Assembly: GCA_001789395.1 (NCBI GenBank)
Contig: MFZK01000014.1
Span: forward strand, 47,130-111,129
Reading direction: 5' to 3'
Origin: Candidatus Roizmanbacteria bacterium RIFCSPHIGHO2_02_FULL_37_13b
GTDB lineage: Bacteria; Patescibacteriota; Microgenomatia; UBA1406; HO2-37-13b
Length of the DNA: 64,000 nucleotides
Shown here: in pieces, positions 21,344 to 57,717 of the stretch
Layout of the letters: each line of letters starts with the position of its first letter
Position numbering within the stretch: position 1 is the first letter of the stretch
Translations under genes and position numbers: made by a program
Notes under the pieces: generated by a model
Seen by the model: only the letters and a program-made list of their open reading frames with translations
Told to the model about the DNA's origin: nothing
The model's database searches: none

Positions 21344-21394
21344 ATTTTGAATGAATCTATATAATTAGACATTATTCTAATTTTTCTTCTTCTT

Positions 21395-21423
21395 TTGACT
21401 ACCTATAGTCTACATACTATAAT
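21395..21423 (+). promoter_or_regulatory. near-consensus sigma70 promoter in the island intergenic region
   Basis: TTGACT at 21395-21400, a 17-nt spacer, then TATAAT at 21418-21423. Confidence 0.6.
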
Positions 21424-21429
21424 GCAGTA

Positions 21430-21482
21430 TCCCAATATGAAGCACTGAAGATATATTGCTTATCTTAATGAGTGCTGTTTTT
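21430..21482 (+). ncRNA. candidate short transcript or leader ending in an intrinsic-terminator-like hairpin
   Basis: Starts about 7 nt after the -10 box. Hairpin AGCACT(21441-46)...AGTGCT(21471-76) has an inner AAGATA/TATCTT pairing, followed by GTTTTT. Confidence 0.3.
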
Positions 21483-21679
21483 ATGGGTCGAAGCTCTCTT
21501 TTATTAGAGGAGCGGAGATCCCTACCGAAGTCCCGACTTTGCGTCGGGACGAAGGGGGAATTTTTTTGCACTTTGGCACTTTGACCCAGCTAGAACTCTT
21601 ACTTCGGTCTGAGAGGCTTACAGCCTCCCACTCCCGAGGAGTGAGTCTACTGGGTTTGCAGTGCTACACACTTTTACAA

Positions 21680-21693
21680 CAAGTGAGTTATTT
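21680..21693. repeat. left copy of 14-bp inverted repeat CAAGTGAGTTATTT flanking the high-GC cassette
   Basis: Perfect reverse complement of 23585-23598. Confidence 0.7.
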
Positions 21694-21696
21694 GTA

Positions 21697-21741
21697 TATG
21701 TCATTGCGAGGATCCCGCTCAGCGGGGGACGAAGCAATCTA
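21697..21741 (+). repeat. TGTCAT...ATC hairpin repeat (TGTCATTGCGAG-GATCCCGCTCAGCGGGGGA-CGAAGCAATC)
   Basis: Shares the TGTCAT 5' end, a GC hairpin core (CCCGC/GCGGG) and an ATC 3' end with the two units at 46689-46745. Confidence 0.6.
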
Positions 21742-21756
21742 GTCACATCTTTAAAA

Positions 21757-21814
21757 TATCCAGCAAGGAGATTTGTATATATGTAAACATATATACAGTT
21801 CGACTTGCTGGATA
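21757..21814. repeat. 58-nt nested perfect hairpin
   Basis: Outer stem TATCCAGCAAG (21757-67) pairs with CTTGCTGGATA (21804-14). Inner stem TGTATATATG (21774-83) pairs with CATATATACA (21788-97), with loop TAAA. Confidence 0.85.
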
Positions 21815-21815
21815 A
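21803..21815 (+). repeat. left copy of direct repeat ACTTGCTG(G)ATAA at the low-GC/high-GC transition
   Basis: ACTTGCTGGATAA here and ACTTGCTGATAA at 23604-23615. Confidence 0.6.
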
Positions 21816-21929
21816 GCCAGCAATATAGAGAAAGGAGAGGACTAACCCGAGCCGGCGGTTCCGGCAAAAACCTCGTTTTCAGGCGAGGATCGTAGACTAC
21901 GAATAAATAAAGAAAGGTTTGTTAATCAC

Positions 21930-23432
21930 ATGGACATTCACGTCCACCATGGACCAATCCAGACGACAGCCGCAGACGCAATCGTCGTCAACCTCTTTCA
22001 AGGTGTCACTCACCTGGGTGGTGCCACCGGAGCCGTCGATGCCGCCTTGGGCGGCCAGATCAGCGCCGTGATCGGTAGCGGCGACTTTAAGGGCAAGCTT
22101 GGCGAGACGCTTGTCCTATACGGTCGTGGCGTCATCCCGGCCTCCCGTGTGATCGTGGTGGGTCTCGGCAAGGCCGAGGAATTCATCCTGGACACCGTAC
22201 GGTGTGCCGCGGCCGCGGCAGCCCTCGCTGCCCGCAAGCTGGGTGCCCGGAGTCTCGCCACGATCGTGCATCGGGCCCGCGGCGACCAGTTAGATCTCGC
22301 CGCTGAGGCTCAGGCGCTGGTGGAGGGCACACTGCTCGCACTCTACGAGTTCAAGATCTACAAGACACAGGGGGATGAGACACCTTCCCAGGTAGAGTAC
22401 CTGACGGTGGTCGAGACGGATAGCGACCGGCTCGAGGCCATTAGTTCAGGTATCGTGGCCGGCGAGGCTGTGGCAGCCGGGGTGATCCTTGCTCGCGACC
22501 TGGCCAACCATCCGGGCAACGTGGCCACGCCGACGTACTTGGCAAACCAGGCCGTGGCGTTGGCCGAGCGTCACGGAATGCGTGTCGAGGTCTGGGATGC
22601 CGATCGAATGCGTGCTGAGGGCATGGGCGCGTTCTTGTCGGTCTCGGCCGGCTCGGCCGAGCCGCCGAAGTTCATCATCGTGGAATACGCGCCGACCGGC
22701 GACGCGGTACTCTCCCCCCACGTGTTGGTCGGGAAGGGGGTTACCTTCGATACCGGCGGCATCAGCCTCAAGCCCGGAGCGAAGATGGGTGACATGAAGT
22801 TCGACATGGCTGGCGCCGCCGCCGTGCTGGGGACGATGGAGGCCGTCGGTCGACTCAGTCTTAACAGGCGGATCGTCGGTCTCATCGGAGCCACCGAGAA
22901 CATGCCCGGTGGTAAAGCGACCAAGCCTGGTGACATCGTGAGGACCTTGACCGGCGCCACGGTCGAGATCGTCAACACCGACGCCGAGGGGCGTATGGTG
23001 TTGGCCGATCTCCTCGGATTCGCCCGTCGTCTTCAGCCGGCGGCGGTGGTGGATCTGGCGACGCTGACGGGCGCCATCGTCGTCGCGTTGGGGAGTCAGT
23101 ATGCAGGCCTCTTCGCGAACGACGACGCTTTGGCCTCCGCCTTGCAGGTTGCAGGCGAAGCGACCGGTGAACCTCTCTGGCGCATGCCGTTGGGGAAGCG
23201 ATACGATGACATCGTCAAGAGCAAGGTCGCAGATATGGCCAACTTGGCCCCAGGAAGTCCGGTGCCGGCCGGAGCCGTAAACGGCGCCAAGTTCCTGGAG
23301 CGCTTCGTGCAGTACCCGTGGGCGCACCTCGACATCGCTGCCACCGCCTGGGATGCCAAGGATATCTCCTATATCCCCGAAGGAGCTACCGGATTCGGGG
23401 TGCGGCTGCTCGTCCAGTGGCTGCGTGCCTGA
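21930..23432 (+). CDS. pepA: leucyl aminopeptidase, peptidase family M17; strongly GC-rich relative to the rest of the window
   Basis: 500 aa with the M17 signature NTDAEGRMVLADLL and VGKGVTFDTGGISLKP. GC-rich codon usage produces long spurious antisense ORFs (for example 22446..23327). Confidence 0.93.
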   Translation: MDIHVHHGPIQTTAADAIVVNLFQGVTHLGGATGAVDAALGGQISAVIGSGDFKGKLGETLVLYGRGVIPASRVIVVGLGKAEEFILDTVRCAAAAAALAARKLGARSLATIVHRARGDQLDLAAEAQALVEGTLLALYEFKIYKTQGDETPSQVEYLTVVETDSDRLEAISSGIVAGEAVAAGVILARDLANHPGNVATPTYLANQAVALAERHGMRVEVWDADRMRAEGMGAFLSVSAGSAEPPKFIIVEYAPTGDAVLSPHVLVGKGVTFDTGGISLKPGAKMGDMKFDMAGAAAVLGTMEAVGRLSLNRRIVGLIGATENMPGGKATKPGDIVRTLTGATVEIVNTDAEGRMVLADLLGFARRLQPAAVVDLATLTGAIVVALGSQYAGLFANDDALASALQVAGEATGEPLWRMPLGKRYDDIVKSKVADMANLAPGSPVPAGAVNGAKFLERFVQYPWAHLDIAATAWDAKDISYIPEGATGFGVRLLVQWLRA

Positions 23433-23441
23433 GCCGTCGGT

Positions 23442-23496
23442 GAGGGGGGCGGCGGCAACGTCGCCCCCCTCGGCCGTCCTTCTTCAAAGAAGGACG
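23442..23496 (+). terminator. two GC-rich hairpins downstream of pepA
   Basis: GAGGGGGGCG (23442-51) pairs with CGCCCCCCTC (23462-71). CGTCCTTC (23475-82) pairs with GAAGGACG (23489-96). There is no clear U-tract. Confidence 0.45.
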
Positions 23497-23584
23497 AAAA
23501 AGTGAACCGGTAGGTTCAAAGATTGGAGGATCACAATTTGCATAGATCCATTTTTCCAGTCTAACCAACTTTACCCGGTCCATA

Positions 23585-23598
23585 AAATAACTCACTTG
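23585..23598. repeat. right copy of 14-bp inverted repeat (AAATAACTCACTTG)
   Basis: Perfect reverse complement of 21680-21693. Confidence 0.7.
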
Positions 23599-23603
23599 CT
23601 CAC

Positions 23604-23615
23604 ACTTGCTGATAA
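23604..23615 (+). repeat. right copy of direct repeat ACTTGCTGATAA
   Basis: Matches 21803-21815 except for one G indel. It is also the 5' arm of a local hairpin (23606-23631). Confidence 0.6.
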
Positions 23616-23699
23616 ATTGTTTTTATCGGCAGATGAGAGAAAAAGATAAAGACAAGAGGATTGAGCATGGAGAATAGAGATTAGTAGTTAGAGATTAGA

Positions 23700-24008
23700 T
23701 TATTTTATTAAATTACAACGATGAGTAAGTATATTTCCCCAAGTCATCATACTTTCAGCCCATTCTAGATTATCAGTTGGGCCGCTTAAACCTTTCTTTT
23801 TAAGTTTGGGATATTCGTTTATAAAATTTTGAATAGTTCTTTGAAGAATTATCGGTAAAATCTGTAGATTAATTTTATTTATATATTCTGTATTTTCTTC
23901 CAAAAAAATACCAATCCGTTTTTTTTTGGCATTATAATCATCCGCTGCCCAGTTACCGACGCGGTTCAAATTCATGGCGATGTCCAATATTAACGCTTTG
24001 TTATCCAT
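23700..24008 (-). CDS. hypothetical small helical protein (102 aa)
   Basis: ORF with host-like AT-rich codon usage. No family recognised. Confidence 0.5.
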   Translation of the reverse strand: MDNKALILDIAMNLNRVGNWAADDYNAKKKRIGIFLEENTEYINKINLQILPIILQRTIQNFINEYPKLKKKGLSGPTDNLEWAESMMTWGNILTHRCNLIK

Positions 24009-24013
24009 TTTTT

Positions 24014-24343
24014 CTAAAATAACAATTTATGAACGATAGTATCAAATTTTGCTCTTATTTCTTCACTTAATATGTCCCGACTCGGATTATTTTGTCGAGG
24101 ACGAAGATTGATAATAGAATTGTAATCTATCTCTTTTGTCTGCTTATCAATGCCGCCACCCCAAAGATTTTCTTGTTTAGATCCTTTGTTAAGTAATAAT
24201 TGTTCGCCTTCAACATGTCTTTTCCCCCCACCGGTCATGATTTCTTTGTCAACGTCAACTACCAATTTAATATACCCATCAAAATCTTCCACTATTTTAA
24301 TTATTTCTTCTTCTTTTATAGATTCTCTTATCAAAATAAGCAT
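24014..24343 (-). CDS. small conserved hypothetical protein, resembles the DUF5674 family
   Basis: IKLVVDVDKEIMTGGG..H..GEQLLLNKGSKQENLWGGGI...IINLRP. The pattern matches my recollection of DUF5674 proteins and was not verified. Confidence 0.45.
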   Translation of the reverse strand: MLILIRESIKEEEIIKIVEDFDGYIKLVVDVDKEIMTGGGKRHVEGEQLLLNKGSKQENLWGGGIDKQTKEIDYNSIINLRPRQNNPSRDILSEEIRAKFDTIVHKLLF

Positions 24344-24431
24344 AAGGCAAATTATAGCAATTAATAAGCGGTTTCTCTATGTATTGTATTTGAAGAGTTC
24401 AAGGTATGTTCTAATTATGATTTTTATTGTC

Positions 24432-24460
24432 TTGACAAGATAAAATAATTGATCTATACT
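24432..24460 (+). promoter_or_regulatory. sigma70-type promoter for the M29-like gene
   Basis: TTGACA at 24432-24437, a 17-nt spacer, then TATACT at 24455-24460. An AAGG-type SD precedes ATG 24481. Confidence 0.6.
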
Positions 24461-24480
24461 GGCAAAGGAAAAACAAGGTT

Positions 24481-25632
24481 ATGACAGCACAACCTGAAGC
24501 ACCAATTTCGCAAGAACTTCTCCAACAAGCCGCTGATAATTATTATCATTGTTTAAATTTACCAAGAGGAAGCAATGTCATCGTGGTATCAGAATCAATA
24601 CCAGAGGGTGGACGAAATGTTGATGCAAGTGTCCTGTTGAGAAATACATTAGCAGACCAGATTAGACAAAAAGCTGAAAGAGATGACCATTCGGTAGCTC
24701 ATTTATCATTTAACAATGAAACAACCGAAGATGAATTCCGCGATTCAACATCAAGAACGCTTTCAGAATATTGTTTAGAAGACGGCGATAAACCACCGGC
24801 GTCAACTACTATAGTATATTTGGGAGATTATTGGGCAAATAGAGGCGGTTTGTATCAGGCAGCAAACGAACATGGATTAAGGCATGATATTAGGATTGCC
24901 GGTTCAATCGGTCTAACTTCAGGAGATATCCGTGTTTTGAGCGCGCTCACAAGAGAAAAACAAAGAGAGATGTCGCAAGTATCAAATGTACTCGAAGCCA
25001 AATTTCAGAGGAATCCAAAGGGATTTATTCAGGTTAAGACTTTGTCAGCAGAAGGTCATGAGCATTTATTAAATCTTCCCTATGACTGTCATCAAGCTCC
25101 CTTCAAAACTGATCCCGGTCGAATTGATGATGAACATCCAATAAAAATGGGCGCCTTTCGATTTCATAATATTCCTGGCGGCCATTTTTTTGGAGCTCCC
25201 TATGAATTTAAACATACAAATGGTAAATTTGTAGCACAGGGCATTGTCTTTAATGTAGTAGATGGTTTGATTGCAGATATTACTGATGATATAGAGGGAT
25301 CGTATGAAAAATTAGATCCAGATCAGCGACGAGCATTAGATTATGTAAAGGGCGGTGGTGGATTACCCTTGTCAGAATTGGGAATCGGATTACATCGGCA
25401 GGTTAATGTCCCAAGTTTTTCAGATTGCTCAATGTTGACCCGGACTAAATCAGGAGTATATTTTGGATTAGGTGAAGCTCATAGCGACACTTCAGAGGCT
25501 GAGCAAATTAGAGGTCTACCAAGCGGCCGCGTTCATTATAATTTTATCCTTTCTGATCCTGAGCTTAGCTTATTAACGCCATCTTTAGATGATCCAATTC
25601 CTATCTATCAACATCAAGCAACGGCTGATTAA
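24481..25632 (+). CDS. divergent M29 (aminopeptidase T/PepS)-like protein
   Basis: FHNIPGGHFFGAPYE aligns with the M29 motif N-[IL]-P-x-x-E-[VI]-F-T-A-P. ELGIGLH and YFGLGEAH resemble later M29 blocks. Acidic and K-poor, like the 712-aa protein. Confidence 0.4.
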   Translation: MTAQPEAPISQELLQQAADNYYHCLNLPRGSNVIVVSESIPEGGRNVDASVLLRNTLADQIRQKAERDDHSVAHLSFNNETTEDEFRDSTSRTLSEYCLEDGDKPPASTTIVYLGDYWANRGGLYQAANEHGLRHDIRIAGSIGLTSGDIRVLSALTREKQREMSQVSNVLEAKFQRNPKGFIQVKTLSAEGHEHLLNLPYDCHQAPFKTDPGRIDDEHPIKMGAFRFHNIPGGHFFGAPYEFKHTNGKFVAQGIVFNVVDGLIADITDDIEGSYEKLDPDQRRALDYVKGGGGLPLSELGIGLHRQVNVPSFSDCSMLTRTKSGVYFGLGEAHSDTSEAEQIRGLPSGRVHYNFILSDPELSLLTPSLDDPIPIYQHQATAD

Positions 25633-49428: not shown

Positions 49429-50022
49429 ATGAAATTGAAAAACATAGGAGTCTTAGGTTTTCAGGGTGATTTTGTCGAGCATATTGAAACGACAAAAAAA
49501 GCACTGAATAAACTAAGTTTTGAAGGAAACATCATAATGGTTAAAACCAAAGACAAGTTACAAAATCTTGACGGTCTGATAATTCCCGGAGGAGAAAGTA
49601 CCACATTGCAGACTTTGTGCATAAAAAACGGGCTGTGGGAAGATATGAAACGAATTAAATATATCTATGGTACCTGTGCTGGTGCAATTCTTTTAGCAAA
49701 AAAAGTTCTTCATAAAACCAAAAATCAGCAGACACTGGAGCTCATGGATATCGAGATAGATCGAAATGCATACGGTGGTCAGATTAGCTCTTTTGAAAAG
49801 AAAATTAAAACAAAATTAGGTAATTTTGATGCCGTCTTTATCCGCTCCCCAAGAATTACTAAGACGGGTAAGAATATTGTTATTATCGCAAAAGAAAGGA
49901 ATGAAGTATTAGCCTGTGAACAAAGAGATAAAGATAAATATTATTTGGTATCGTGTTTTCATCCGGAATTGACGACAACGATCTTCCACGAATATTTTCT
50001 CAAAAAAATCTATTCACAATAA
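49429..50022 (+). CDS. pdxT: pyridoxal 5'-phosphate synthase glutaminase subunit PdxT
   Basis: ORF 49384..50022. ATG 49429 gives MKLKNIGVLGFQGDFVEH. GTCAG catalytic Cys and FHPEL are present. Confidence 0.92.
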   Translation: MKLKNIGVLGFQGDFVEHIETTKKALNKLSFEGNIIMVKTKDKLQNLDGLIIPGGESTTLQTLCIKNGLWEDMKRIKYIYGTCAGAILLAKKVLHKTKNQQTLELMDIEIDRNAYGGQISSFEKKIKTKLGNFDAVFIRSPRITKTGKNIVIIAKERNEVLACEQRDKDKYYLVSCFHPELTTTIFHEYFLKKIYSQ

Positions 50023-50331
50023 TTATTTATTCTTTAATACTGTTTGATATCCGCCGCAACCTTTGAATAACCAATGAGCGACACGAGTGACAGTGGTAGT
50101 TGATGCACCGACTTTCTTAGCAATCAGTTCATAAGAACCTCCTTCTGTGAGTAATCGAGCGATCTCTAATCGATTGGAGAATTCTTCAATTTCAGGTAAA
50201 GTCATCAAATCGCGTATAAAATTGGTCATATCCGTTTCAGATTTTAAAGAGAGTAGAGCGTAGATTAATGCTTTTTCTTTACTATTTTTTGGTGAATATG
50301 TTTCTGTTTTAGTAAAACGGTTTGTTTTCAT
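50023..50331 (-). CDS. TrpR-like transcriptional regulator of the YerC/YecD family, divergent from the his operon
   Basis: LSLKSETDMTNFIRDLMTLPEIEEFSNRLEIARLL...GASTTTVTRVAHWLFKGCGGY closely follows the YerC/YecD pattern. Confidence 0.8.
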   Translation of the reverse strand: MKTNRFTKTETYSPKNSKEKALIYALLSLKSETDMTNFIRDLMTLPEIEEFSNRLEIARLLTEGGSYELIAKKVGASTTTVTRVAHWLFKGCGGYQTVLKNK

Positions 50332-50359
50332 ATGCTAATTATAAAGTATTGAATATCTC

Positions 50360-50400
50360 TTGACAATAATATAGTATCATGTTATCATATTAACATGATA
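50360..50400 (+). promoter_or_regulatory. his promoter (TTGACA-17-TATCAT with TGn extension) overlapped by a perfect 10-bp inverted repeat operator
   Basis: TTGACA at 50360-65 and TATCAT at 50383-88. TATCATGTTA (50375-84) pairs with TAACATGATA (50391-400), with a 6-nt spacer. Confidence 0.6.
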
Positions 50401-50457
50401 GAAAATAAGGTTAGTAACTTTGAAGTAAATCATCATTACCCTGCTTCGGCGGGGTGA
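50395..50457 (+). CDS. candidate his leader peptide (20 aa, MIENKVSNFEVNHHYPASAG) with tandem His codons
   Basis: ATG 50395 lies about 7 nt after the -10 box, implying a leaderless transcript. CAT CAT falls at 50431-36, immediately 5' of attenuator segment 1. The TGA stop at 50455-57 lies just after segment 2. Confidence 0.45.
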   Translation: MIENKVSNFEVNHHYPASAG

Positions 50458-50505
50458 TATTGGCGTTTTATTTTTTGTAACCCCGCCTAACCAGCGGGTT
50501 TTTTT
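50439..50505 (+). promoter_or_regulatory. three-structure transcription attenuator (1:2 anti-antiterminator, 2:3 antiterminator, 3:4 terminator + U7)
   Basis: 1:2 is CCCTGC-TTCG-GCGGGG (50439-54). 2:3 is GGCGGGG (50448-54) with CCCCGCC (50481-87). 3:4 is CCCGC (50482-86) with GCGGG (50494-98), followed by T7 (50499-505). Confidence 0.55.
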
Positions 50506-50630
50506 ATGTAGCTGTTTCTGCTTTCATAATAAAACGCAGAAATACAGCTACATAACCCCGTAGGATCGCTCCTCGGAGGCAAGGATGTAACCCTTGCGAC
50601 GAGGTAAGATTCCTTCGGGGTAAAGAAATT

Positions 50631-51509
50631 ATGCAGAAACTTAATAATGGAAATATAAAATTAGCGATTCAAAAGAAAGGTCGATTGAGTGAGGATTCGA
50701 TTGAATTTTTGCGAAAAGCTGGTCTTGAGTTTGAATCCTACAGTAAAAGCTTATTTGCCTCTTGTCGCAATTTCCCACTAGAGATTCTTTTTGTGCGTGA
50801 TGATGATATTCCCGATTACGTTGAGACGGGGGTAGTTGATCTTGGGATTGTTGGTCAAAATCTGCTTAATGAACTGCAACCAAAGGTAAAAAAGCTTTTA
50901 AACTTACGATTTTGCTTCTGCTCTCTTTGTCTTTGCGTGCCTAAAGACTCTTCAATTTCAGACTTTTACGATTTAAACGATGCGAAAGTGGCTACCTCAT
51001 ATCCAAACTCGACTAAATATTTTTTGCTAAAAAACAATATTAAAGCCAAAGTAATTACGATAAACGGTTCAGTTGAAGCAACTCCAGTTTTGGGAATTGC
51101 CAATGCCATAGTCGATCTTGTCTCAACCGGAAGTACTCTTTCAGCCAACGATCTAAAAATAATCTCCAAATTATATGATTCTGAGGCGATTTTAATATCA
51201 AATATTAATTTATTGACTAATAAAAAAAAGAATGCACTTGTTAATAAACTACTTACTCGATTCAAGGGAGTATTAGTGGCTAAAAACTATAAATATGTAA
51301 TGATGAATGCACCGGAAAAAATACTTCCGAAAATTAATAAAACTATTCCTGGATTGAAATCGCCAACGATTTCTCCACTTAATTCAAAAGGGTGGATTTC
51401 TATTCAATCAGTGATCAAAGAGGACGTATTTTGGGAAACCATTGAAAAGCTTAAAAAAATTGGCGCGACGGGAATTTTGGTATTGCCAGTTGAAAAATTG
51501 ATTCTATGA
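50631..51509 (+). CDS. hisG: ATP phosphoribosyltransferase, long form
   Basis: IKLAIQKKGRLSE, DIPDYVETGVVDLGIVG and LVSTGSTL motifs. At 292 aa it includes a C-terminal regulatory domain. Confidence 0.93.
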   Translation: MQKLNNGNIKLAIQKKGRLSEDSIEFLRKAGLEFESYSKSLFASCRNFPLEILFVRDDDIPDYVETGVVDLGIVGQNLLNELQPKVKKLLNLRFCFCSLCLCVPKDSSISDFYDLNDAKVATSYPNSTKYFLLKNNIKAKVITINGSVEATPVLGIANAIVDLVSTGSTLSANDLKIISKLYDSEAILISNINLLTNKKKNALVNKLLTRFKGVLVAKNYKYVMMNAPEKILPKINKTIPGLKSPTISPLNSKGWISIQSVIKEDVFWETIEKLKKIGATGILVLPVEKLIL

Positions 51510-52795
51510 AAGTCACAAAACTCTCTGATTTATCAAAAAAAGATTATGAACGAATAGTAAGACGATCATTTGGTACTAATCTATCTATTATGCCTAATGT
51601 TAAAAAGATTATCCGAGATGTTAAGACGAACGGAGATAGTGTAATTATCAATAATTGTCAAAAAAATTATGGTATTCAAAATCTTGACAATCTTCAGGTA
51701 ACGCAAAGTGAAGTGAAGAATGCATATTCCCAAGTAGATAAAACAACAATACAAGCATTGAGACAAATGATAAAAAATATTACCTTAGTTCACAAGGCAC
51801 AGCTTCCTCGCAAAAAAGATACAATTGTGCAAACGGAAAAAGGTATTCGTGTTTGGCGCGAATGGAGAGCGATTGAGAAGGTTGGATTATACGTTCCGGG
51901 AGGAAAGGCAATATATCCTTCATCAATATTGATGAGTGCTATACCGGCACAAATTGCGGGGTGCCGCGATATTATTCTTTGTTCTCCAGCAAAACAAGAC
52001 GGAAACATGTCTGCGGCAACCATTATTGCTGCTGATCTAATTGGGTTACGGAAACTATATAAAGTTGGAGGCATTGAAGCAATCGCGGCAATGGCTTATG
52101 GTACAGAAACGATTCCCTGTGTTTATAAAATTTTTGGGGCAGGCAATGCGTATGTTACTGCTGCAAAAATGTATGTGTTTGGAGACGTTGCCATCGATAT
52201 GCCTGCTGGTCCTTCGGAAATATTTATTATTGCTGATAAAGAGGCAAATCCTAAGTTTATAGCTGCAGATTTACTTGCCGATGGCGAACATGGAACAGAT
52301 TCAGCATGTGTGCTTATCACTACGTCGCAACAAATTGCTAAAGAGTCAATCAAGCAAATTGAAAAACAATTACAAAGCTTGAGAACCAGAGACCGTATAG
52401 AGGAATCTATTAAAAGATATGGATTGTTTGCGATAGTTAATTCACTTGATGAAGCCGTTTCATTTGCTAATGAATATGCGCCGGAGCACTTAGAAATTAT
52501 GACAAAAAATCCTGAAAAATTGGTTGAAAAGATAACTAATGCCGGATCAATTTTTCTCGGCGATTGGACATCAAAAGCTACGGGAGATTATGCAACAGGC
52601 GCCAATCACGTGTTACCAACTGGGGGTACAGCCAAAATGTATTCACCACTTGGAGTTGATGCATATGGAAAATGGATGCAAGTACAAGAATGCACGAAAG
52701 ACGGTCTAATGGCGATAAAAAAAACAATAGAAACTATTGCTGAAGTTGAGCAATTACCAGCTCACAAAAATTCAATATCAGTTCGATTTGCATAG
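51506..52795 (+). CDS. hisD: histidinol dehydrogenase
   Basis: VGLYVPGG, AGPSE, EHGTDS and APEHLE motifs. Confidence 0.95.
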   Translation: MKVTKLSDLSKKDYERIVRRSFGTNLSIMPNVKKIIRDVKTNGDSVIINNCQKNYGIQNLDNLQVTQSEVKNAYSQVDKTTIQALRQMIKNITLVHKAQLPRKKDTIVQTEKGIRVWREWRAIEKVGLYVPGGKAIYPSSILMSAIPAQIAGCRDIILCSPAKQDGNMSAATIIAADLIGLRKLYKVGGIEAIAAMAYGTETIPCVYKIFGAGNAYVTAAKMYVFGDVAIDMPAGPSEIFIIADKEANPKFIAADLLADGEHGTDSACVLITTSQQIAKESIKQIEKQLQSLRTRDRIEESIKRYGLFAIVNSLDEAVSFANEYAPEHLEIMTKNPEKLVEKITNAGSIFLGDWTSKATGDYATGANHVLPTGGTAKMYSPLGVDAYGKWMQVQECTKDGLMAIKKTIETIAEVEQLPAHKNSISVRFA

Positions 52796-52796
52796 T

Positions 52797-53864
52797 ATGA
52801 AAAATAATAAATACTTTTCAAAAATAGCAGAAAAAATTGTTCCTTATCAATGGGAAGAGAGTTTGTCTGATGAAGTATTACGATTTGACACAAATACAGT
52901 TCCATTTCCGCCACCAAATTTGCAACGATTTTTTAAATCACTTGGCAATAATTGTCCTATCAATGAATATAAAGATCCGTCATATAAAAAACTGGAAACT
53001 CTTATTGCGCAATATGAAAAAGTCCAATCAGACATGATTACGGTGACAAATAGTGGCGATGAAGCGCTTGACATCTTAGCTAAGACATTTTTGGACGATG
53101 ACGATACATTCTTGGTAACGCCGCCGACTTACGAAATTTTTTCAATTCAGTGCGAACTTAATAAAGGACGAAAAGTTGAAGTCCCGCTTTCAGGCAAATT
53201 ATTTAACGTTAATACCAATAAAATTATTACCACAACAAACGAACAAAAAGTTAAACTTATTTTTCTGTGCAATCCTAATAATCCAACAGGCACAATTATT
53301 TCTCAAAGTGATATCGAAAAAGTGGTTCGATGCTGTTCAACTATAGTAGTTGTGGATGAAGCATACCGTGAATTCTATGGCAATAGTTCGGTTACACTTC
53401 TTAAAAAATACGATAATTTGGTAATTCTACGTAGTTTTTCAAAATTTGCTGGTATTGCCGGTGCGAGAGTAGGATATCTTATTGCTAATTCTTTTTTGTC
53501 ATCTAAATTTCACAGCATTCGTTTCCCGATGGGAGTGAGCTATTTTTCGTACAAACTTGCTGAATGGGTACTTGAGAATGATCAACAATGGATGAATCAA
53601 CAAATTGAAATGATTAAAACCGAAAGAGAAAGGCTTTCAAACAAATTATTAGTAATGGGTTTTTATGTCTTGCCATCAAAGGCAAATTTTTTGCTGGTAA
53701 ATATTGGAGCTCGTGTTAAGGAAATACAAGACAAGCTTAAAAAGAAGGGCATATTAATTCGTGACCGTAGTTCAAAAAAATATTTGACAGGATGTGTACG
53801 GATTACAGTTAGGAGTCGCAAAGAAAATGATGTATTAATAAATGCACTAAAAAAAATTGTATGA
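52797..53864 (+). CDS. hisC: histidinol-phosphate aminotransferase
   Basis: ORF 52737..53864. ATG 52797 follows the hisD stop. NPNNPTG, and SFSKFAGIAGARVGY with the PLP Lys. Confidence 0.9.
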   Translation: MKNNKYFSKIAEKIVPYQWEESLSDEVLRFDTNTVPFPPPNLQRFFKSLGNNCPINEYKDPSYKKLETLIAQYEKVQSDMITVTNSGDEALDILAKTFLDDDDTFLVTPPTYEIFSIQCELNKGRKVEVPLSGKLFNVNTNKIITTTNEQKVKLIFLCNPNNPTGTIISQSDIEKVVRCCSTIVVVDEAYREFYGNSSVTLLKKYDNLVILRSFSKFAGIAGARVGYLIANSFLSSKFHSIRFPMGVSYFSYKLAEWVLENDQQWMNQQIEMIKTERERLSNKLLVMGFYVLPSKANFLLVNIGARVKEIQDKLKKKGILIRDRSSKKYLTGCVRITVRSRKENDVLINALKKIV

Positions 53865-54502
53865 AACTGAATTATGATGGATTAATTTTTGATATGGATG
53901 GAGTATTAGTTGATGTATCACGATCTTATCGTGAAGCAATTCGACAAACCGCGAGTTATTTTCTGAACCGAAATGTGTCGATGAATGAGGTAACTGAAAT
54001 AAAGAATAAAACCGGTATGAACAATGACTGGGATGCGACAATCGCATTAATAAATAACAAAAAAATTTCATTCAAATCTGTAAAAAAATATTTTCAATCA
54101 CTCTATTTGGGTAATAAAAATACGAGTGGACTTATCGATAATGAAAAATTATTAATCTCAAAAATGATGCTCGTAAAGTTAAAAAAGAAATATAAAAAAA
54201 TAGCAATCGCTACGGGAAGGCCGCGAAAAGAAGCAGAATATGTTATGAAAAAAAATATGCTTCAGAGAGTATTTGATTGCTTGATTGCAAGGGAAAACGT
54301 AAAGAGAGACAAACCGGCACCGGAATCGATCATAAAAGTCATAGAAATTCTTGGGCTTAATAATACGGTTTATATCGGCGATAGCCCAAGTGATGTATCT
54401 GCGGCAAAAAATGCCGGGATACCAAGTATATATGTAGGTGATCAAAATATTGGAACAATGCGTTTTCCAACAATATTACAAGTTATTAAATATCTATTAT
54501 GA
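53861..54502 (+). CDS. HAD-superfamily (subfamily IA-like) phosphatase embedded in the his operon; candidate histidinol-phosphatase
   Basis: DMDGVLVD motif I, ATGRP motif II region and GDSPSDVSAAKNAG motif III. ATGA overlaps with both hisC and hisB. Confidence 0.6.
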   Translation: MKLNYDGLIFDMDGVLVDVSRSYREAIRQTASYFLNRNVSMNEVTEIKNKTGMNNDWDATIALINNKKISFKSVKKYFQSLYLGNKNTSGLIDNEKLLISKMMLVKLKKKYKKIAIATGRPRKEAEYVMKKNMLQRVFDCLIARENVKRDKPAPESIIKVIEILGLNNTVYIGDSPSDVSAAKNAGIPSIYVGDQNIGTMRFPTILQVIKYLL

Positions 54503-55089
54503 AAAGAGCTAGTCAATTAAATAGAAAAACAAATGAGACGGAAATTTCCATAGATTTAAACATTGAGGGAACCGGAAAAAGAAATATCGATACCCCTATT
54601 GGTTTTTTGAATCATATGCTTGATTTATTTGCAAAGCATGGCTTGTTTAATCTGAATATAAAAGCAAGCGGAGATACATTTATAGATGATCATCATACAG
54701 TTGAAGATTTGGGAATTGTTTTAGGGAGTGCATTTGGTAAAGCGCTTGGTGATAAAGCAGGAATTAATCGATATGGTTTTTTTATATTACCGATGGATGA
54801 AGCGGTGGCCACGGTCGCAATCGATTTTTCAGGACGATATGCATTTTCATTTGACTGTAATTTTAAGCGGGAAAAAGTCGGCAATTTATCAACGGAGCTA
54901 ATTTATGATTTTTGGGATGCGTTTGCCCAAAATGCCAAAGTTAACCTATATATAAAAGTTGAAAATGGTCGAAACGATCACCACAAAATTGAGGCTATAT
55001 TTAAGGCATCGGCTAGAGCAATTCGGTCGGCATGCGAGTTAGATAAACGAGCTATATTTGAAATTCCGTCAACGAAAGGAATTTTATGA
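54499..55089 (+). CDS. hisB: imidazoleglycerol-phosphate dehydratase (monofunctional)
   Basis: RKTNETEISIDLNIEG, DDHHTVEDLGI and NDHHKIEAIFKA motifs. Confidence 0.95.
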   Translation: MKRASQLNRKTNETEISIDLNIEGTGKRNIDTPIGFLNHMLDLFAKHGLFNLNIKASGDTFIDDHHTVEDLGIVLGSAFGKALGDKAGINRYGFFILPMDEAVATVAIDFSGRYAFSFDCNFKREKVGNLSTELIYDFWDAFAQNAKVNLYIKVENGRNDHHKIEAIFKASARAIRSACELDKRAIFEIPSTKGIL

Positions 55090-55706
55090 TCACAATTGTT
55101 GATTATGGCTTAGGGAATTTGGGAAGTATTAAAAATGCTTTTGACAAGCTGAACATTAATTCTGTGATTTCAAGTTCGGCAAAAGAAATAGAGAAAGCCA
55201 CAGGGATTATTTTCCCGGGTGTTGGGGCAGCTGGTGCTGGCATGAAAAATTTAAGGGAAATGGGATTAGATGAAATAATTGAATCATTGATTCGAGTAGA
55301 AAAACCGTTACTTGGAATTTGCCTTGGTATGCAACTTTTCATGTCATTTAGCGAAGAGGGAAATGTTAACTGTCTCAATTTGATCAATGGGAATGTTAGG
55401 CGATTTAATACAAAATTTAAAGTGCCGCAGACGGGTTGGAATCAAGTTAAAAAAAATAGAGCATCAAAATTACTAAAAGGAATCAATAACAATTCTAATT
55501 TTTATTTTGTTAATTCATATTATTGTGATCCATTTGACAAAAAAATTGTAAAAGGAGTTACAGAATATGGACAAACATTTTGTAGCGTTTTTGAAAAGAA
55601 AAATATTTTTGGTGTTCAGTTTCACCCAGAAAAAAGTGGAGAAAATGGATCGCAGTTATTAAAAAATTTTACCGACATAGTCTATGAAAATACTACCTGC
55701 AGTTGA
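55086..55706 (+). CDS. hisH: imidazole glycerol phosphate synthase, glutaminase subunit
   Basis: IVDYGLGNLGS, GICLGMQ and GVQFHPEKS motifs. Confidence 0.95.
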   Translation: MITIVDYGLGNLGSIKNAFDKLNINSVISSSAKEIEKATGIIFPGVGAAGAGMKNLREMGLDEIIESLIRVEKPLLGICLGMQLFMSFSEEGNVNCLNLINGNVRRFNTKFKVPQTGWNQVKKNRASKLLKGINNNSNFYFVNSYYCDPFDKKIVKGVTEYGQTFCSVFEKKNIFGVQFHPEKSGENGSQLLKNFTDIVYENTTCS

Positions 55707-56397
55707 TATAAAAAACGGTAAATGTGTAAGGCTGACACAAGGTGATTATAGTCGAGAAACGATCTATGAAAATGATCCAGTCATAATTGCAAAAAAATGG
55801 CAATCTCAGGGTGCCAAAGATCTTCACATTATTGATCTTGATGGCGCCAGAGAAGGAAAAACAATTAATCTAAAAGTCATTGCTGACATTATCGAAGACA
55901 CAGGTCTTACGGTGCAGGTTGGAGGCGGTATTCGCACCATCAAATCTGCACAGAAATATTTTGAAATTGGAATGTCAAGATTAATTTTAGGAACTGTGGC
56001 AATAGATAACCAAGAATTGTTGAAAGAATTTATCGATAAGTTTGGAGAAAAGATAATTGTATCGCTTGACGTGAAAAATAAAAAATTAGCCAAAAAAGGT
56101 TGGATTAATTTAAGTAACGATGAATTAATTCCAAAAGCTAAAGAAATTGAACAATTGGGTGTTAATACGATTATTTATACCGATACAAATAGAGATGGAA
56201 TGTTAACAGAACCTAACTATAGAAATATTGTCGGGTTAAAGAAAGCCGTAAAAATTAATGTGGTAATTGCAGGCGGTGTTACAAATATAGATCAAGTAGC
56301 AATACTAAAGCGATTGAAAGTTGATGGAATTATTATCGGAAAAGCCTTGTATGAGGGTTCTATAAATTTAGAGGAGGTACTAAAATATGCTGACTAA
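55684..56397 (+). CDS. hisA: ProFAR isomerase
   Basis: [24 protein letters not shown] and VGGGIR motifs. Confidence 0.94.
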
Positions 56398-57145
56398 ACG
56401 AATTATTCCGTGCTTGGATGTTGATGATGGACGCGTTGTTAAAGGAGTCAATTTTGTAAATATTGTGGATGCTGGTGATCCAGTTGAACTGGCTAAAATA
56501 TATAACAATGAAGGAGCTGATGAGCTCGTTTTTTTAGATATCACAGCATCAAGCGATAACAGAAAAATCATGATAGATATTGTAAAAAAAGTCGCCAAAA
56601 AAGTGTTCATTCCCTTTACTGTTGGTGGAGGAATTAGAACCATTGAAGATATTAAAAACAATCTTATCGCTGGAGCAGACAAAATCGCAATTAATACATC
56701 TGCAGTAAAAAACCCACAATTAATTAAACGAGGAGCGAGTATGTTTGGTAGTCAATGCATAGTTGTTGCAATTGATGCAAAAAAACAGGGCAATAGCTGG
56801 GAAGTATTCATTAATGGAGGACGAACGGCAACAAGAATAAATGTTTATGACTGGGTACAAAAAGTAGTTCAACTTGGAGCAGGTGAGATTCTTTTAACCA
56901 GTATGGATCGAGATGGAACCAAAGACGGGTATGATATCGAGTTAACTAAAAAAATATCAGAAAATGTGTCGGTTCCAGTTATTGCTTCAGGTGGTGCAGG
57001 AAGCCTTCAAGATTTTGCACAAATATTTAATGATGGAAAAGCTGACGGCGCACTTGCTGCATCATTATTTCACTATGATGAATTAAAAATTGCTGACTTG
57101 AAACAATATTTATTACAAAGTCAAATTCCAATGCGAATAACATGA
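56387..57145 (+). CDS. hisF: imidazole glycerol phosphate synthase, cyclase subunit
   Basis: [22 protein letters not shown] and [12 protein letters not shown] motifs. Confidence 0.96.
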
Positions 57146-57146
57146 C

Positions 57147-57452
57147 ATGGAAAAAAAATTGATACCAACGATTATTCAAGATTATAAAACCAATGATGTG
57201 TATATGTTGGGGTTTAGTACTACAGAGTCATTAAAGAAAACAAAAAAAACAGGTCTGGTTCACTTTTGGAGTCGTAGTAGAAAGAAATTGTGGAGGAAAG
57301 GTGAAGAATCAGGTAATTCATTACAAATAAAAGAAATATTTTTTGACTGTGATAACGATTCACTATTATTTAAAGTTAAACTTATAGGAAAATATACTTG
57401 TCATAAGAATCGGACAAGTTGTTTCTTTAATAAATATGATGACATTAAATAA
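57147..57452 (+). CDS. hisI: phosphoribosyl-AMP cyclohydrolase
   Basis: SRSRKKLWRKGEESGNSLQI...DCDNDSLLFKV...CH motifs. Confidence 0.92.
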   Translation: MEKKLIPTIIQDYKTNDVYMLGFSTTESLKKTKKTGLVHFWSRSRKKLWRKGEESGNSLQIKEIFFDCDNDSLLFKVKLIGKYTCHKNRTSCFFNKYDDIK

Positions 57453-57717
57453 ACTTTATTCAGTAATCAATAGTCGCAAAAAAAAATTACCTGCTAAATC
57501 ATATACTGCCTCATTGATTAGAGGAGGTAGTGATTCTATTCTCAAAAAAGTAGCAGAGGAATCAGCTGAAGTTGTAATTGCATGTAAAAACAATCAACAG
57601 AGAGAAATGATTAATGAAATCGCCGATTTATGGTATCACGTTTTAGTTCTTCTTGCCGTCAAGAATATTAATTTAAAAGATATATTTTATGAATTGGAAA
57701 AAAGATCTAAGAAATAA
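57436..57717 (+). CDS. hisE: phosphoribosyl-ATP pyrophosphatase
   Basis: SYTASLI...KKVAEESAEVVIA...EIADLWYHVLVLL motifs. Confidence 0.9.
   Translation: MMTLNKLYSVINSRKKKLPAKSYTASLIRGGSDSILKKVAEESAEVVIACKNNQQREMINEIADLWYHVLVLLAVKNINLKDIFYELEKRSKK

Follow-up and report, generated by a model that had tools for sequence, protein, structure and literature searches.

The his operon and its leader region

The subject of this study is the control region of the histidine biosynthesis (his) operon of Candidatus Roizmanbacteria bacterium RIFCSPHIGHO2_02_FULL_37_13b, a member of the Patescibacteria (candidate phyla radiation, CPR). We analyzed 64,000 nt of contig MFZK01000014.1 (assembly GCA_001789395.1, positions 47,130 to 111,129 of the forward strand), here called the window; all coordinates are positions in this 64-kb window, and labels of the type L001 denote loci or contigs fetched for comparison. 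An earlier sequence-only reading of this DNA had proposed that positions 50395 to 50505, in front of hisG, form a ribosome-mediated his attenuator with a leaderless leader open reading frame (ORF) of 20 codons that contains tandem His codons. The promoter, the ATG at 50395, the ORF, the CAU-CAU pair, the three alternative helices (1:2, 2:3, and 3:4), the run of seven U residues (U7), and the stop codon that it described all lie where it had placed them. The promoter, the leader ORF, and the operon are as follows.

50360..50388, plus strand: his promoter, TTGACA (50360-65), 17 nt, and an extended -10 box, TG-n-TATCAT (50383-88), matching 11/12 consensus positions
50395..50457, plus strand: leader ORF, hisL-like, 20 codons, encoding MIENKVSNFEVNHHYPASAG, predicted to be leaderless
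50431..50436, plus strand: regulatory His codons CAU CAU, read from the sequence
50631..57717, plus strand: complete his operon, hisG, hisD, hisC, a HAD hydrolase gene, hisB, hisH, hisA, hisF, hisI, and hisE (assigned with Pfam)

The leader ORF starts at ATG 50395, stops at UGA 50455-57, and lies 174 nt upstream of hisG. A promoter scan of the plus strand from 50389 to hisG revealed no further promoter-like site. The ORF overlaps the first two of four RNA segments that can pair in mutually exclusive ways.

50437..50444, plus strand: segment 1, UACCCUGC, partner of segment 2
50448..50456, plus strand: segment 2, GGCGGGGUG, partner of segment 1 or segment 3; the UGA at 50455-57 overlaps its 3' end
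50480..50487, plus strand: segment 3, ACCCCGCC, pairing with segment 2 (antiterminator) or segment 4 (terminator)
50494..50505, plus strand: segment 4, GCGGG (50494-98), and U7 (50499-505), the 3' arm of the terminator and its U-tract

The core of helix 1:2 consists of CCCUGC (50439-44), a UUCG loop, and GCGGGG (50449-54), and the helix extends to 8 bp when 50437-44 is paired with GCGGGGUG (50449-56); the CAU CAU pair lies 0 to 2 nt ahead of it. Helix 2:3 also has 8 bp, with GGCGGGGU (50448-55) complementary to ACCCCGCC (50480-87). The terminator, CCCGC-CUAACCA-GCGGG (50482-98) followed by U7 (50499-505), is the sole terminator-like site within 49800-51000. A leader of 116 nt folds better than 200/200 dinucleotide shuffles (z = -2.85), the whole 246-nt leader has a z score of -7.2 against shuffles, and the 2:3 duplex (-14.4 kcal/mol) is stronger than that in 300/300 shuffles of the upstream region. 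The stabilities of helices 1:2, 2:3, and 3:4 in the window were -13.3, -13.4, and -8.4 kcal/mol. When the footprint of a ribosome at the second His codon was masked (covering segment 1), the minimum-energy fold of the window leader was the antiterminator, and when the footprint at the stop codon was masked (covering segment 2), or when nothing was masked, it was the terminator. The stall-and-stop logic proposed earlier thus holds in the folds of the window leader.

An exact-protein look-up found 22 contigs with exactly the same HisR protein, the repressor encoded next to the operon, and 10 of these were read. Over 309 nt that span the intergenic region, 10/10 contigs read (of the 22 found), which come from several metagenomes, have the same sequence. 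The locus is therefore not an assembly artifact, and because the regulatory region is identical in all 10 contigs, it offers no microdiversity to use.

Conservation of the leader among Microgenomates relatives

In genome collections, the nearest relatives of the window HisG come nearly all from metagenome-assembled genomes of Patescibacteria/Microgenomates, including Roizman-, Levy-, Davies-, Gottesman-, and Woesebacteria, with Chloroflexi and Bacteroidota next, in agreement with the CPR assignment made in the sequence-only reading. The comparison set comprised 39 Microgenomates hisG loci from genomes and 80 from metagenomes. Just upstream of hisG in about half of the fetched Microgenomates loci, there is a short ORF with CAY CAY(CAY) codons, followed by the four-segment layout. 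A covariance model (R1) built on the 1:2 plus 3:4 structure had a single match in the window, the leader itself (68.6 bits), and 48 distinct matches in the Microgenomates loci, each of them in a hisG leader; it had no match in the fetched Chloroflexi or Bacteroidota hisG loci. The leader ORF and His codons that the sequence-only reading had suggested looking for upstream of hisG in related genomes are present in these leaders. At the aligned position, at least one His codon is present in 48/48 leaders, and two to four consecutive His codons are present in 42 of them. The ORF is present in the related leaders as well, either with 15 to 28 codons or fused to hisR. A canonical GC hairpin with a run of five to eight U residues behind it is present throughout the family, and the family medians for helices 1:2, 2:3, and 3:4 (-10.9, -12.7, and -12.9 kcal/mol) indicate that the three are about equally stable. 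The spacer between segments 2 and 3 has no conserved columns across the family.

The position of the stop codon fits the same scheme. With respect to the 3' end of segment 2, there are 26 leaders in which the stop overlaps it, 14 in which the stop lies 9 to 16 nt before it, and 9 in which the stop lies 10 to 14 nt after it. A ribosome covers approximately 12 nt beyond the stop codon (PMC4833913), and segment 2 would therefore be masked wholly or largely in each of these stop classes.

Covariation was scored on a covariance-model alignment (A3), which replaced a MAFFT alignment (A1) in which segment 4 was misregistered in some rows. A3 still misaligns highly divergent members (e.g., L156, L138, and L007), and the terminators of L020 and L017 were assigned by hand. 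For helices 1:2 and 3:4 together, 82% of cells were paired on A3, both sides had changed in 12/15 pairs, compensatory changes were present in all 8 pairs of helix 1:2, and 0/500 shuffles reached the observed value, counts that are biased because A3 was fitted to these very helices. Helix 2:3, to which A3 was not fitted, had 89.4% of cells paired, compared to 35 to 51% when the partner was slid by 1 to 3 columns, and had 10 double-change cells; again, 0/500 shuffles reached the observed score. The stems fall into classes that switch jointly in all segments (CCCCGCC/GGCGGGG, CACCGCC/GGCGGUG, and CCCGCGC/GCGCGGG), with further classes in L156 and L138 (CCAGCC/GGCUGG) and in L160 (CCCCACC/GGUGGGG). 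The sequence-only reading had let its proposal hang on whether relatives keep the His codons and the alternative pairings; the codons, the frame, the stop, and all three helices are kept, with compensatory changes.

Several leaders deviate from the common layout. In L038 (3836-3990), an HHH-N-stop leads directly into a single long terminator and the 1:2 hairpin is missing; L018 (3557-3690) combines four His codons with two terminators in tandem; and in L007/L107 the only His codon stands in the tail of HisR and no 2:3 pairing is evident. Outside the CPR, Bacteroidota loci L070-L080 have short ORFs of their own that end in HH to HHHH, 66 to 99 nt upstream of hisG, and the Thermomicrobiales loci L065 and L069 also have His-ending short ORFs upstream of hisG. 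Examples of such ORFs, which R1 does not detect, are MKAIAFILHSQFHHSK and ...FHFHHHHRS.

The leader ORF and its predicted leaderless start

The -10 box of the his promoter is separated from ATG 50395 by a gap of 6 nt, which puts the predicted start of transcription, 7 nt past the -10 box, at the A of the ATG. Divergent hisR shows this geometry as well (TATAAT, 6 nt, ATG). In 20 related loci, the promoter, the -10 box (TAnCAT), a gap of exactly 6 nt, and the ATG are all kept, and in these 20 loci the ORF from the ATG is open and in frame to the His codons, with seven different lengths between 17 and 24 codons. It is this promoter geometry that suggests leaderless initiation at ATG 50395.

The closest relative, L081, whose HisG is 95% identical to that of the window, shows what has been kept in the ORF. 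The two loci have the same his promoter sequence, ATG, CAUCAU, segments 1 to 4, stop, and U-tract, and they differ by many substitutions in the codons that lie between ATG-AUA and the His codons (MIENKVSNFEVNHH in the window versus MITEPGFNFDIVHH in L081). Of the peptide, nothing persists beyond HH and the residues that the hairpin dictates (P-A-x-A-G). A drifting peptide with a constant HH and constant segments is the pattern of a regulatory ORF rather than of a functional peptide.

Further evidence that the ORF is read comes from loci in which hisR lies directly upstream on the same strand (L034, L009, L114, L103, and L157). In these five loci, the His codons and the codons of segments 1 and 2 form an in-frame C-terminal tail of the ORF that encodes the Trp_repressor domain; the tails have 10 to 18 residues with HH or HHH codons (H-S-H in L103). 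The ORFs concerned are as follows.

L034, 3-290: HisR ORF with His tail
L009, 3364-3684: HisR ORF with His tail
L114, 1026-1346: HisR ORF with His tail
L103, 1115-1432: HisR ORF with His tail
L157, 951-1280: HisR ORF with His tail

Since the regulatory codons lie here within a real protein-coding ORF, these loci are evidence that the ORF is read, and in them the repressor gene itself would take the role of a leader peptide ahead of hisG. In five other loci (L013, L123, L134, L135, and L141), a separate leader ORF begins within approximately 25 nt after the hisR stop. We infer that the leader ORF of the window is likewise translated in the organism.

HisR and its likely operator

The gene next to the his leader encodes a protein of the TrpR family, and a palindrome lies between this gene and hisG. 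The sequence-only reading, whose attenuator the data above support, had overlooked this palindrome and, with it, the probable dual control of the operon. The features concerned are as follows.

50023..50331, minus strand: hisR, divergent gene for a 102-aa YerC/YecD (TrpR-family) repressor (assigned with Pfam and NCBIfam)
50338..50366, minus strand: hisR promoter, TTGTCA, 17 nt, TATAAT, matching 11/12 consensus positions, with the -10 box ending 6 nt before the hisR ATG
50375..50400, no strand: likely HisR operator, a perfect 26-bp palindrome (10 + 6 + 10), TATCATGTTA-TCATAT-TAACATGATA, with the core TGTTA-N6-TAACA

The window HisR matches the Pfam family Trp_repressor (PF01371, 1.3e-17) and TIGR02531 (yecD_yerC, 64.1 bits versus a cut-off of 42.2). 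The YerC/YecD family has been named HisR and described as a histidine-responsive repressor with a 20-bp palindromic operator of 7-6-7 architecture and the consensus cacTTTAnnnnnnTAAAgtg (PMC9413887). The published consensus does not occur in the window, and matches to it within 2 mismatches are at chance level; the window has a 7-6-7 box of its own, CATGTTA-N6-TAACATG, that matches the published architecture. The core TGTTA-N6-TAACA occurs exactly once in the 64-kb window, and in 28 loci it lies upstream of his leaders, those of the attenuator type described here and those of a T-box-like type (see below) alike.

Comparison of the hisR-hisG promoter regions of approximately 45 loci revealed two HisR specificity classes with no cross-combinations. 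Where the recognition helix is SSTTIARIxKW, the box is exactly ACTTTA-N6-TAAAGT, the published Firmicutes-type HisR consensus (16 loci), and where the helix is the window-type STTTVTRVAxW, the box is TGTTA-N6-TAACA (25 loci); neither group includes a locus with the box of the other. The STTTVTRVAxW class is mostly divergent from hisG, and the SSTTIARIxKW class is always codirectional with it. The covariation of box type with recognition helix supports the operator assignment: the palindrome at 50375-50400 is likely the HisR operator, and the HisR/operator pair of the window is, as judged from helix and box, a specificity variant of the published system. The leader ATG, the predicted start, and the -10 box all share positions with the palindrome, whose right arm contains ATG 50395. 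Because the leader ATG lies in the likely HisR operator, the his operon would be under dual control, and because this operator sits between the divergent promoters, autoregulation of hisR is likely.

T-box-like leaders in sibling loci

The other half of the Microgenomates relatives have a different, T-box-like leader at the same position just upstream of hisG (L004-L006, L008, L010-L012, L015, L016, L019, L021-L026, L032, L039, and approximately 25 of L100-L155). These leaders score 40.2 bits with the Rfam T-box model (local E = 1.5e-7), below the gathering threshold of 93, and a score of approximately 40 bits against that threshold explains why standard annotation misses them. A UGGG bulge in the T-box sequence is present in 41/41 distinct copies and a GUCACGA loop in 38/41; Stem I is reduced to a covarying 5-bp stem with the loop GUCACGA, in which CAC is the His specifier. 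The orthologous his operons of sister genomes thus carry one or the other of two predicted sensors of tRNA-His charging, and a T-box-like leader in the siblings is what would be expected if the window element were a His attenuator.

A second hairpin and U-run in the T-box-like leader share a 5' arm with the T-box terminator. In 12/39 genome loci (L001, L002, L006, L011, L018, L019, L022-L025, L027, and L032), ARAGORN found a tRNA-His (GUG) gene between the leader, be it attenuator or T-box, and hisG, approximately 20 to 110 nt upstream of hisG; in L005 such a gene was found by Rfam only. In these loci the tRNA-His gene is apparently cotranscribed with the his operon under His-dependent control.

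A model for attenuation of the his operon

The element at 50395-50505 has every defining feature of a classical leader-peptide attenuator that can be read from sequence. We propose, with a probability of roughly 85%, that it is a histidine-responsive, ribosome-mediated transcription attenuator of hisGDC-HAD-BHAFIE that acts alongside HisR, whose operator overlaps the promoter. Transcription would start at or beside the A of ATG 50395, and a ribosome would translate the 20-codon leader while RNA polymerase advances. With charged tRNA-His plentiful, the ribosome would reach the UGA at 50455-57 and cover segment 2; with no ribosome loaded, helix 1:2 would form. In either case segment 3 would pair with segment 4, and the hairpin and U7 would terminate transcription at approximately 50505. 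With charged tRNA-His scarce, the ribosome would stall at CAU-CAU (50431-36) and cover segment 1, so that segment 2 could pair with nascent segment 3 (8 bp), the terminator would be blocked, and transcription would read through to hisG. Independently of the attenuator, HisR on the palindrome at 50375-50400 would block initiation when histidine is high. The start of transcription, the choice between termination and read-through, and HisR binding are all predictions of this model from the features described above.

Points against the model and alternative explanations

Several observations weigh against the model. The His codons vary in arrangement: 6/48 relatives lack two adjacent His codons, with exceptions that include H-Y, H-R, Y-H, H-T-H, and H-S-H (a single His codon in L083, L096, and L020; H-x-H in L135 and L103), and the window itself has just two regulatory codons. 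Apart from the bias in the counts for helices 1:2 and 3:4 noted above, most stems are conserved in sequence, and hence the number of independent compensatory events is modest. The window terminator is weak (5 bp with a 7-nt loop, -7.4 to -8.4 kcal/mol). In several relatives, the terminator is still the minimum-energy fold of the full transcript when segment 1 is masked; such relatives would depend on the formation of helix 2:3 ahead of the synthesis of segment 4, which is a kinetic argument. With respect to initiation, no Shine-Dalgarno (SD) sequence was found upstream of the leader ORF, a scan of the gaps between -10 box and ATG for 71 ORFs gave no clear peak and no clear leaderless signal, and the ATG also falls within the operator consensus (TAACATG), so that the ATG alone is no proof of a start codon.

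Among the alternatives, all of them improbable, the one that fares best is that the leader ORF acts mainly on translation or on the fate of the mRNA and not through intrinsic termination, with a stalled or terminating ribosome altering the exposure of the hisG start region or Rho-dependent polarity. In many relatives, including L081, the G-rich segment 4 lies 9 to 14 nt upstream of the hisG ATG, the window terminator hairpin is weak, and there is a precedent for a leaderless translational attenuator in the Cys short ORFs of mycobacteria (10.1101/834739). However, the canonical GC hairpin and U-run (five to eight residues) of every member are the signature of intrinsic termination, and this genome rarely uses SD sequences (SD-like motifs precede just 10/49 long ORFs in the window). 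Moreover, masking of the start site by helix 3:4 cannot operate in the window, because segment 4 and the hisG ATG lie 125 nt apart, with structured RNA between them.

It is less probable still that HisR at the palindrome is the sole control, with the hairpins an incidental pause site or terminator and the short ORF untranslated. In favor of this stand a strong and specific palindrome, an ATG that is part of the operator consensus, and the weak terminator of the window. Control by the repressor alone, however, leaves unexplained why His codons stand at a fixed place in 48/48 leaders, why there are in-frame ORFs of seven lengths, why the stop is placed as it is, and why the 2:3 complementarity is conserved and covarying. 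Nor does it account for the replacement of the element by a T-box-like leader in siblings that carry the HisR box.

We give slightly less credence to the possibility of direct sensing of uncharged tRNA-His by the leader, which would act like a reduced T-box in which CAUCAU is the specifier for the GUG anticodon and nothing is translated. At this position the siblings do have T-box-like leaders whose specifier is CAC, and CAUCAU in the window is single-stranded or at the base of a helix. The Rfam T-box model (RF00230), however, has no match in 49800-51000 at E values up to 10, the antiterminator lacks the conserved T-box sequence and the UGGG bulge, and the 2-3 spacer is unconserved. The start codon, the frame, and the stop are kept, and in five loci the His codons lie in a real protein-coding ORF. 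A T-box-like reading of the window leader, with no T-box sequence and a conserved ORF, was therefore rejected. Finally, the idea that the ORF encodes a functional micropeptide and that the hairpins are merely its terminator, for which one could cite the conserved presence of the ORF and the terminator after it, can be dismissed, as the peptide sequence is unconserved even at 95% HisG identity, with only HH and the hairpin residues persisting, and such a terminator would cut off the sole promoter of the his operon.

A structured RNA between the terminator and hisG

The attenuator reading requires one amendment to the extent of the leader, which the sequence-only reading had let end at 50505. 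A 123-nt structured insertion (50506-50630) follows the terminator and precedes hisG; it has no counterpart in L081, where, as in many other relatives, the hisG ATG lies within a few nucleotides (2 to 4 nt) of the U-tract. The parts of the insertion and the copies of its RNA are as follows.

50506..50553, plus strand: long hairpin with a 16-bp stem, first part of the insertion
50553..50625, plus strand: irregular four-stem hairpin of approximately 70 nt with the apical loop AUGUAAC, second part of the insertion
21579..21657, minus strand: second copy of the insertion RNA in the window, antisense to the flanking genes
L002, 1811-1884: copy in a hisG leader
L020, 598-670: copy in a hisG leader
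L089, 1341-1416: copy in a hisG leader (related copies in the hisG leaders of L089-93)
L109, 858-931, minus strand: copy in the 5' untranslated region of hisR
L096, 25-98, minus strand: copy in the 5' untranslated region of hisR (L096/L144)

Across the copies, the apical loop has the form A(U/C)GUA(A/G)(A/C), usually with a long plain hairpin ahead. Seven distinct copies showed 86% pairing, compared to 27 to 56% in slid controls, with compensatory changes in 14/21 pairs. The insertion RNA matched no Rfam family, and a model rebuilt for it (R3) found no additional members. We also considered whether the insertion is a miniature inverted-repeat transposable element with a TA duplication and rejected this, as there are no terminal inverted repeats and only a 1-nt junction ambiguity.

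The spacer between segments 2 and 3 contains a perfect 10-nt complementarity to the insertion, 50463-50472 with 50528-50537 (GCGUUUUAUU with AAUAAAACGC); the first side lies in the loop of the antiterminator and the second in the loop and stem of the inserted hairpin, and L081 lacks both. This may be chance or a long-range contact.

A possible, though in our estimate doubtful, proposal is that the insertion RNA represents an undescribed class of structured RNA that in Microgenomates adds, beyond HisR and the attenuator, a cis-acting regulatory or processing layer to his-regulon transcripts by binding a ligand or a protein, and that the His codons have repeatedly been moved to the tail of HisR, so that a full-length regulator gene doubles as a leader peptide.

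Other features of the window

No Rfam family reached its gathering threshold in the 64-kb window, and no tRNA gene was found there. Within the his operon, the gene for the HAD-family hydrolase (53861-54502) has hisC on one side and hisB on the other, and the window hisB consists of the IGPD domain only; the hydrolase could plausibly replace the absent histidinol-phosphate phosphatase. Elsewhere in the window, a segment at 21930-23432 (more broadly, 19205-25632) has a GC content of 57%, compared to 33 to 37% in the rest of the genome, and encodes an M17 leucyl aminopeptidase; on its flanks are a 712-aa ORF without a Pfam match and a hairpin-rich intergenic region of 586 nt that contains the orphan copy of the insertion RNA. 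This segment looks like acquired DNA.

Relation to known systems and significance

The element resembles the enterobacterial his leader hisL (RF00514) in that it has a short ORF whose tandem His codons directly precede or fall within the first pairing segment and a mutually exclusive antiterminator and terminator upstream of hisG. E. coli hisL has seven His codons in a row, whereas the window leader has two, and it differs further in having no SD sequence, a predicted leaderless ORF, a start codon inside an operator, and HisR besides. In the enterobacterial his leader, the ribosome reads the charging level of tRNA-His (PMC9413887). The two leaders are not homologous in sequence or structure: the His_leader model (RF00514) had no match at its gathering threshold in the whole window and none at E values up to 10 in 49800-51000. 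With E. coli trpL (RF00513), the element shares the four-segment logic of 1:2, 2:3, and 3:4, two regulatory codons by or within segment 1, a stop placed for coverage of segment 2, and a TrpR-family repressor, here predicted to act at the promoter, but it concerns another amino acid and another operon. The Trp_leader model (RF00513) gave 17.9 bits (E = 1.3) in 49800-51000, versus a gathering threshold of 41 bits, which reflects the general shape rather than membership. Membership in RAGATH-19, which came up in the scan of the region at E values up to 10 with 24.6 bits, far below gathering, was rejected.

Candidate his attenuators have been predicted by comparative genomics in the Firmicutes (the Bacillus cereus group, Peptostreptococcaceae, and Erysipelotrichales), with three to five His codons and only in lineages that lack both HisR and a His T-box (PMC9413887). 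They likewise have a His-rich leader peptide right upstream of the attenuator, with antiterminator and terminator hairpins, whereas the window attenuator belongs to another phylum and coexists with HisR and its likely operator. In mycobacteria, polycysteine short ORFs, for which leaderless status has been shown experimentally, free a sequestered ribosome-binding site (10.1101/834739). The likeness lies in a short ORF as the first cistron, predicted to be leaderless here too, the tandem codons for the regulated amino acid, and the remodeling of the downstream RNA by a stalled ribosome, proposed here; in contrast, the window element ends in a canonical intrinsic terminator, and its leaderless status is predicted from the promoter. 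The window resembles the HisR regulon in having a TrpR-family protein of approximately 100 aa beside the his genes and a 20-bp 7-6-7 palindrome at the promoter, with the half-site CATGTTA of a predicted operator in place of the published cacTTTA; HisR was not reported for Patescibacteria in that study (PMC9413887). T-boxes (RF00230) stand at the same position in the siblings and respond to the same signal, tRNA-His charging, whereas the window leader has no T-box sequence and is predicted to contain a translated ORF instead.

The sequence-only reading was aware of no attenuators in CPR/Patescibacteria, and full-text literature searches likewise returned no report of attenuators in CPR or Patescibacteria. 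Proteobacteria have established leader-peptide attenuators for His, and several lineages of Firmicutes have predicted ones (PMC9413887). Because such attenuators are thus already known or predicted in several phyla, the novelty is taxonomic and not mechanistic: the proposed attenuator is a new sequence family in a new phylum, and its mechanism is classical.

The CPR/Patescibacteria are uncultured and genome reduced, and their gene regulation is almost unknown. If the attenuator proposed here is real, it would provide sequence-level evidence that transcription and translation in the CPR are coupled tightly enough for sensing and that initiation at SD-less, probably leaderless, short ORFs functions in these organisms. 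The clade is also a natural experiment, in which the his operon has an attenuator in some loci and a reduced T-box in others, paired in either case with one of two HisR/operator classes, and in which the sensor codons are in some loci fused to the repressor gene. The elements are compact (approximately 110 nt), and the approximately 50 attenuator and approximately 40 T-box sequences could serve for studying how regulatory RNAs are swapped in evolution.

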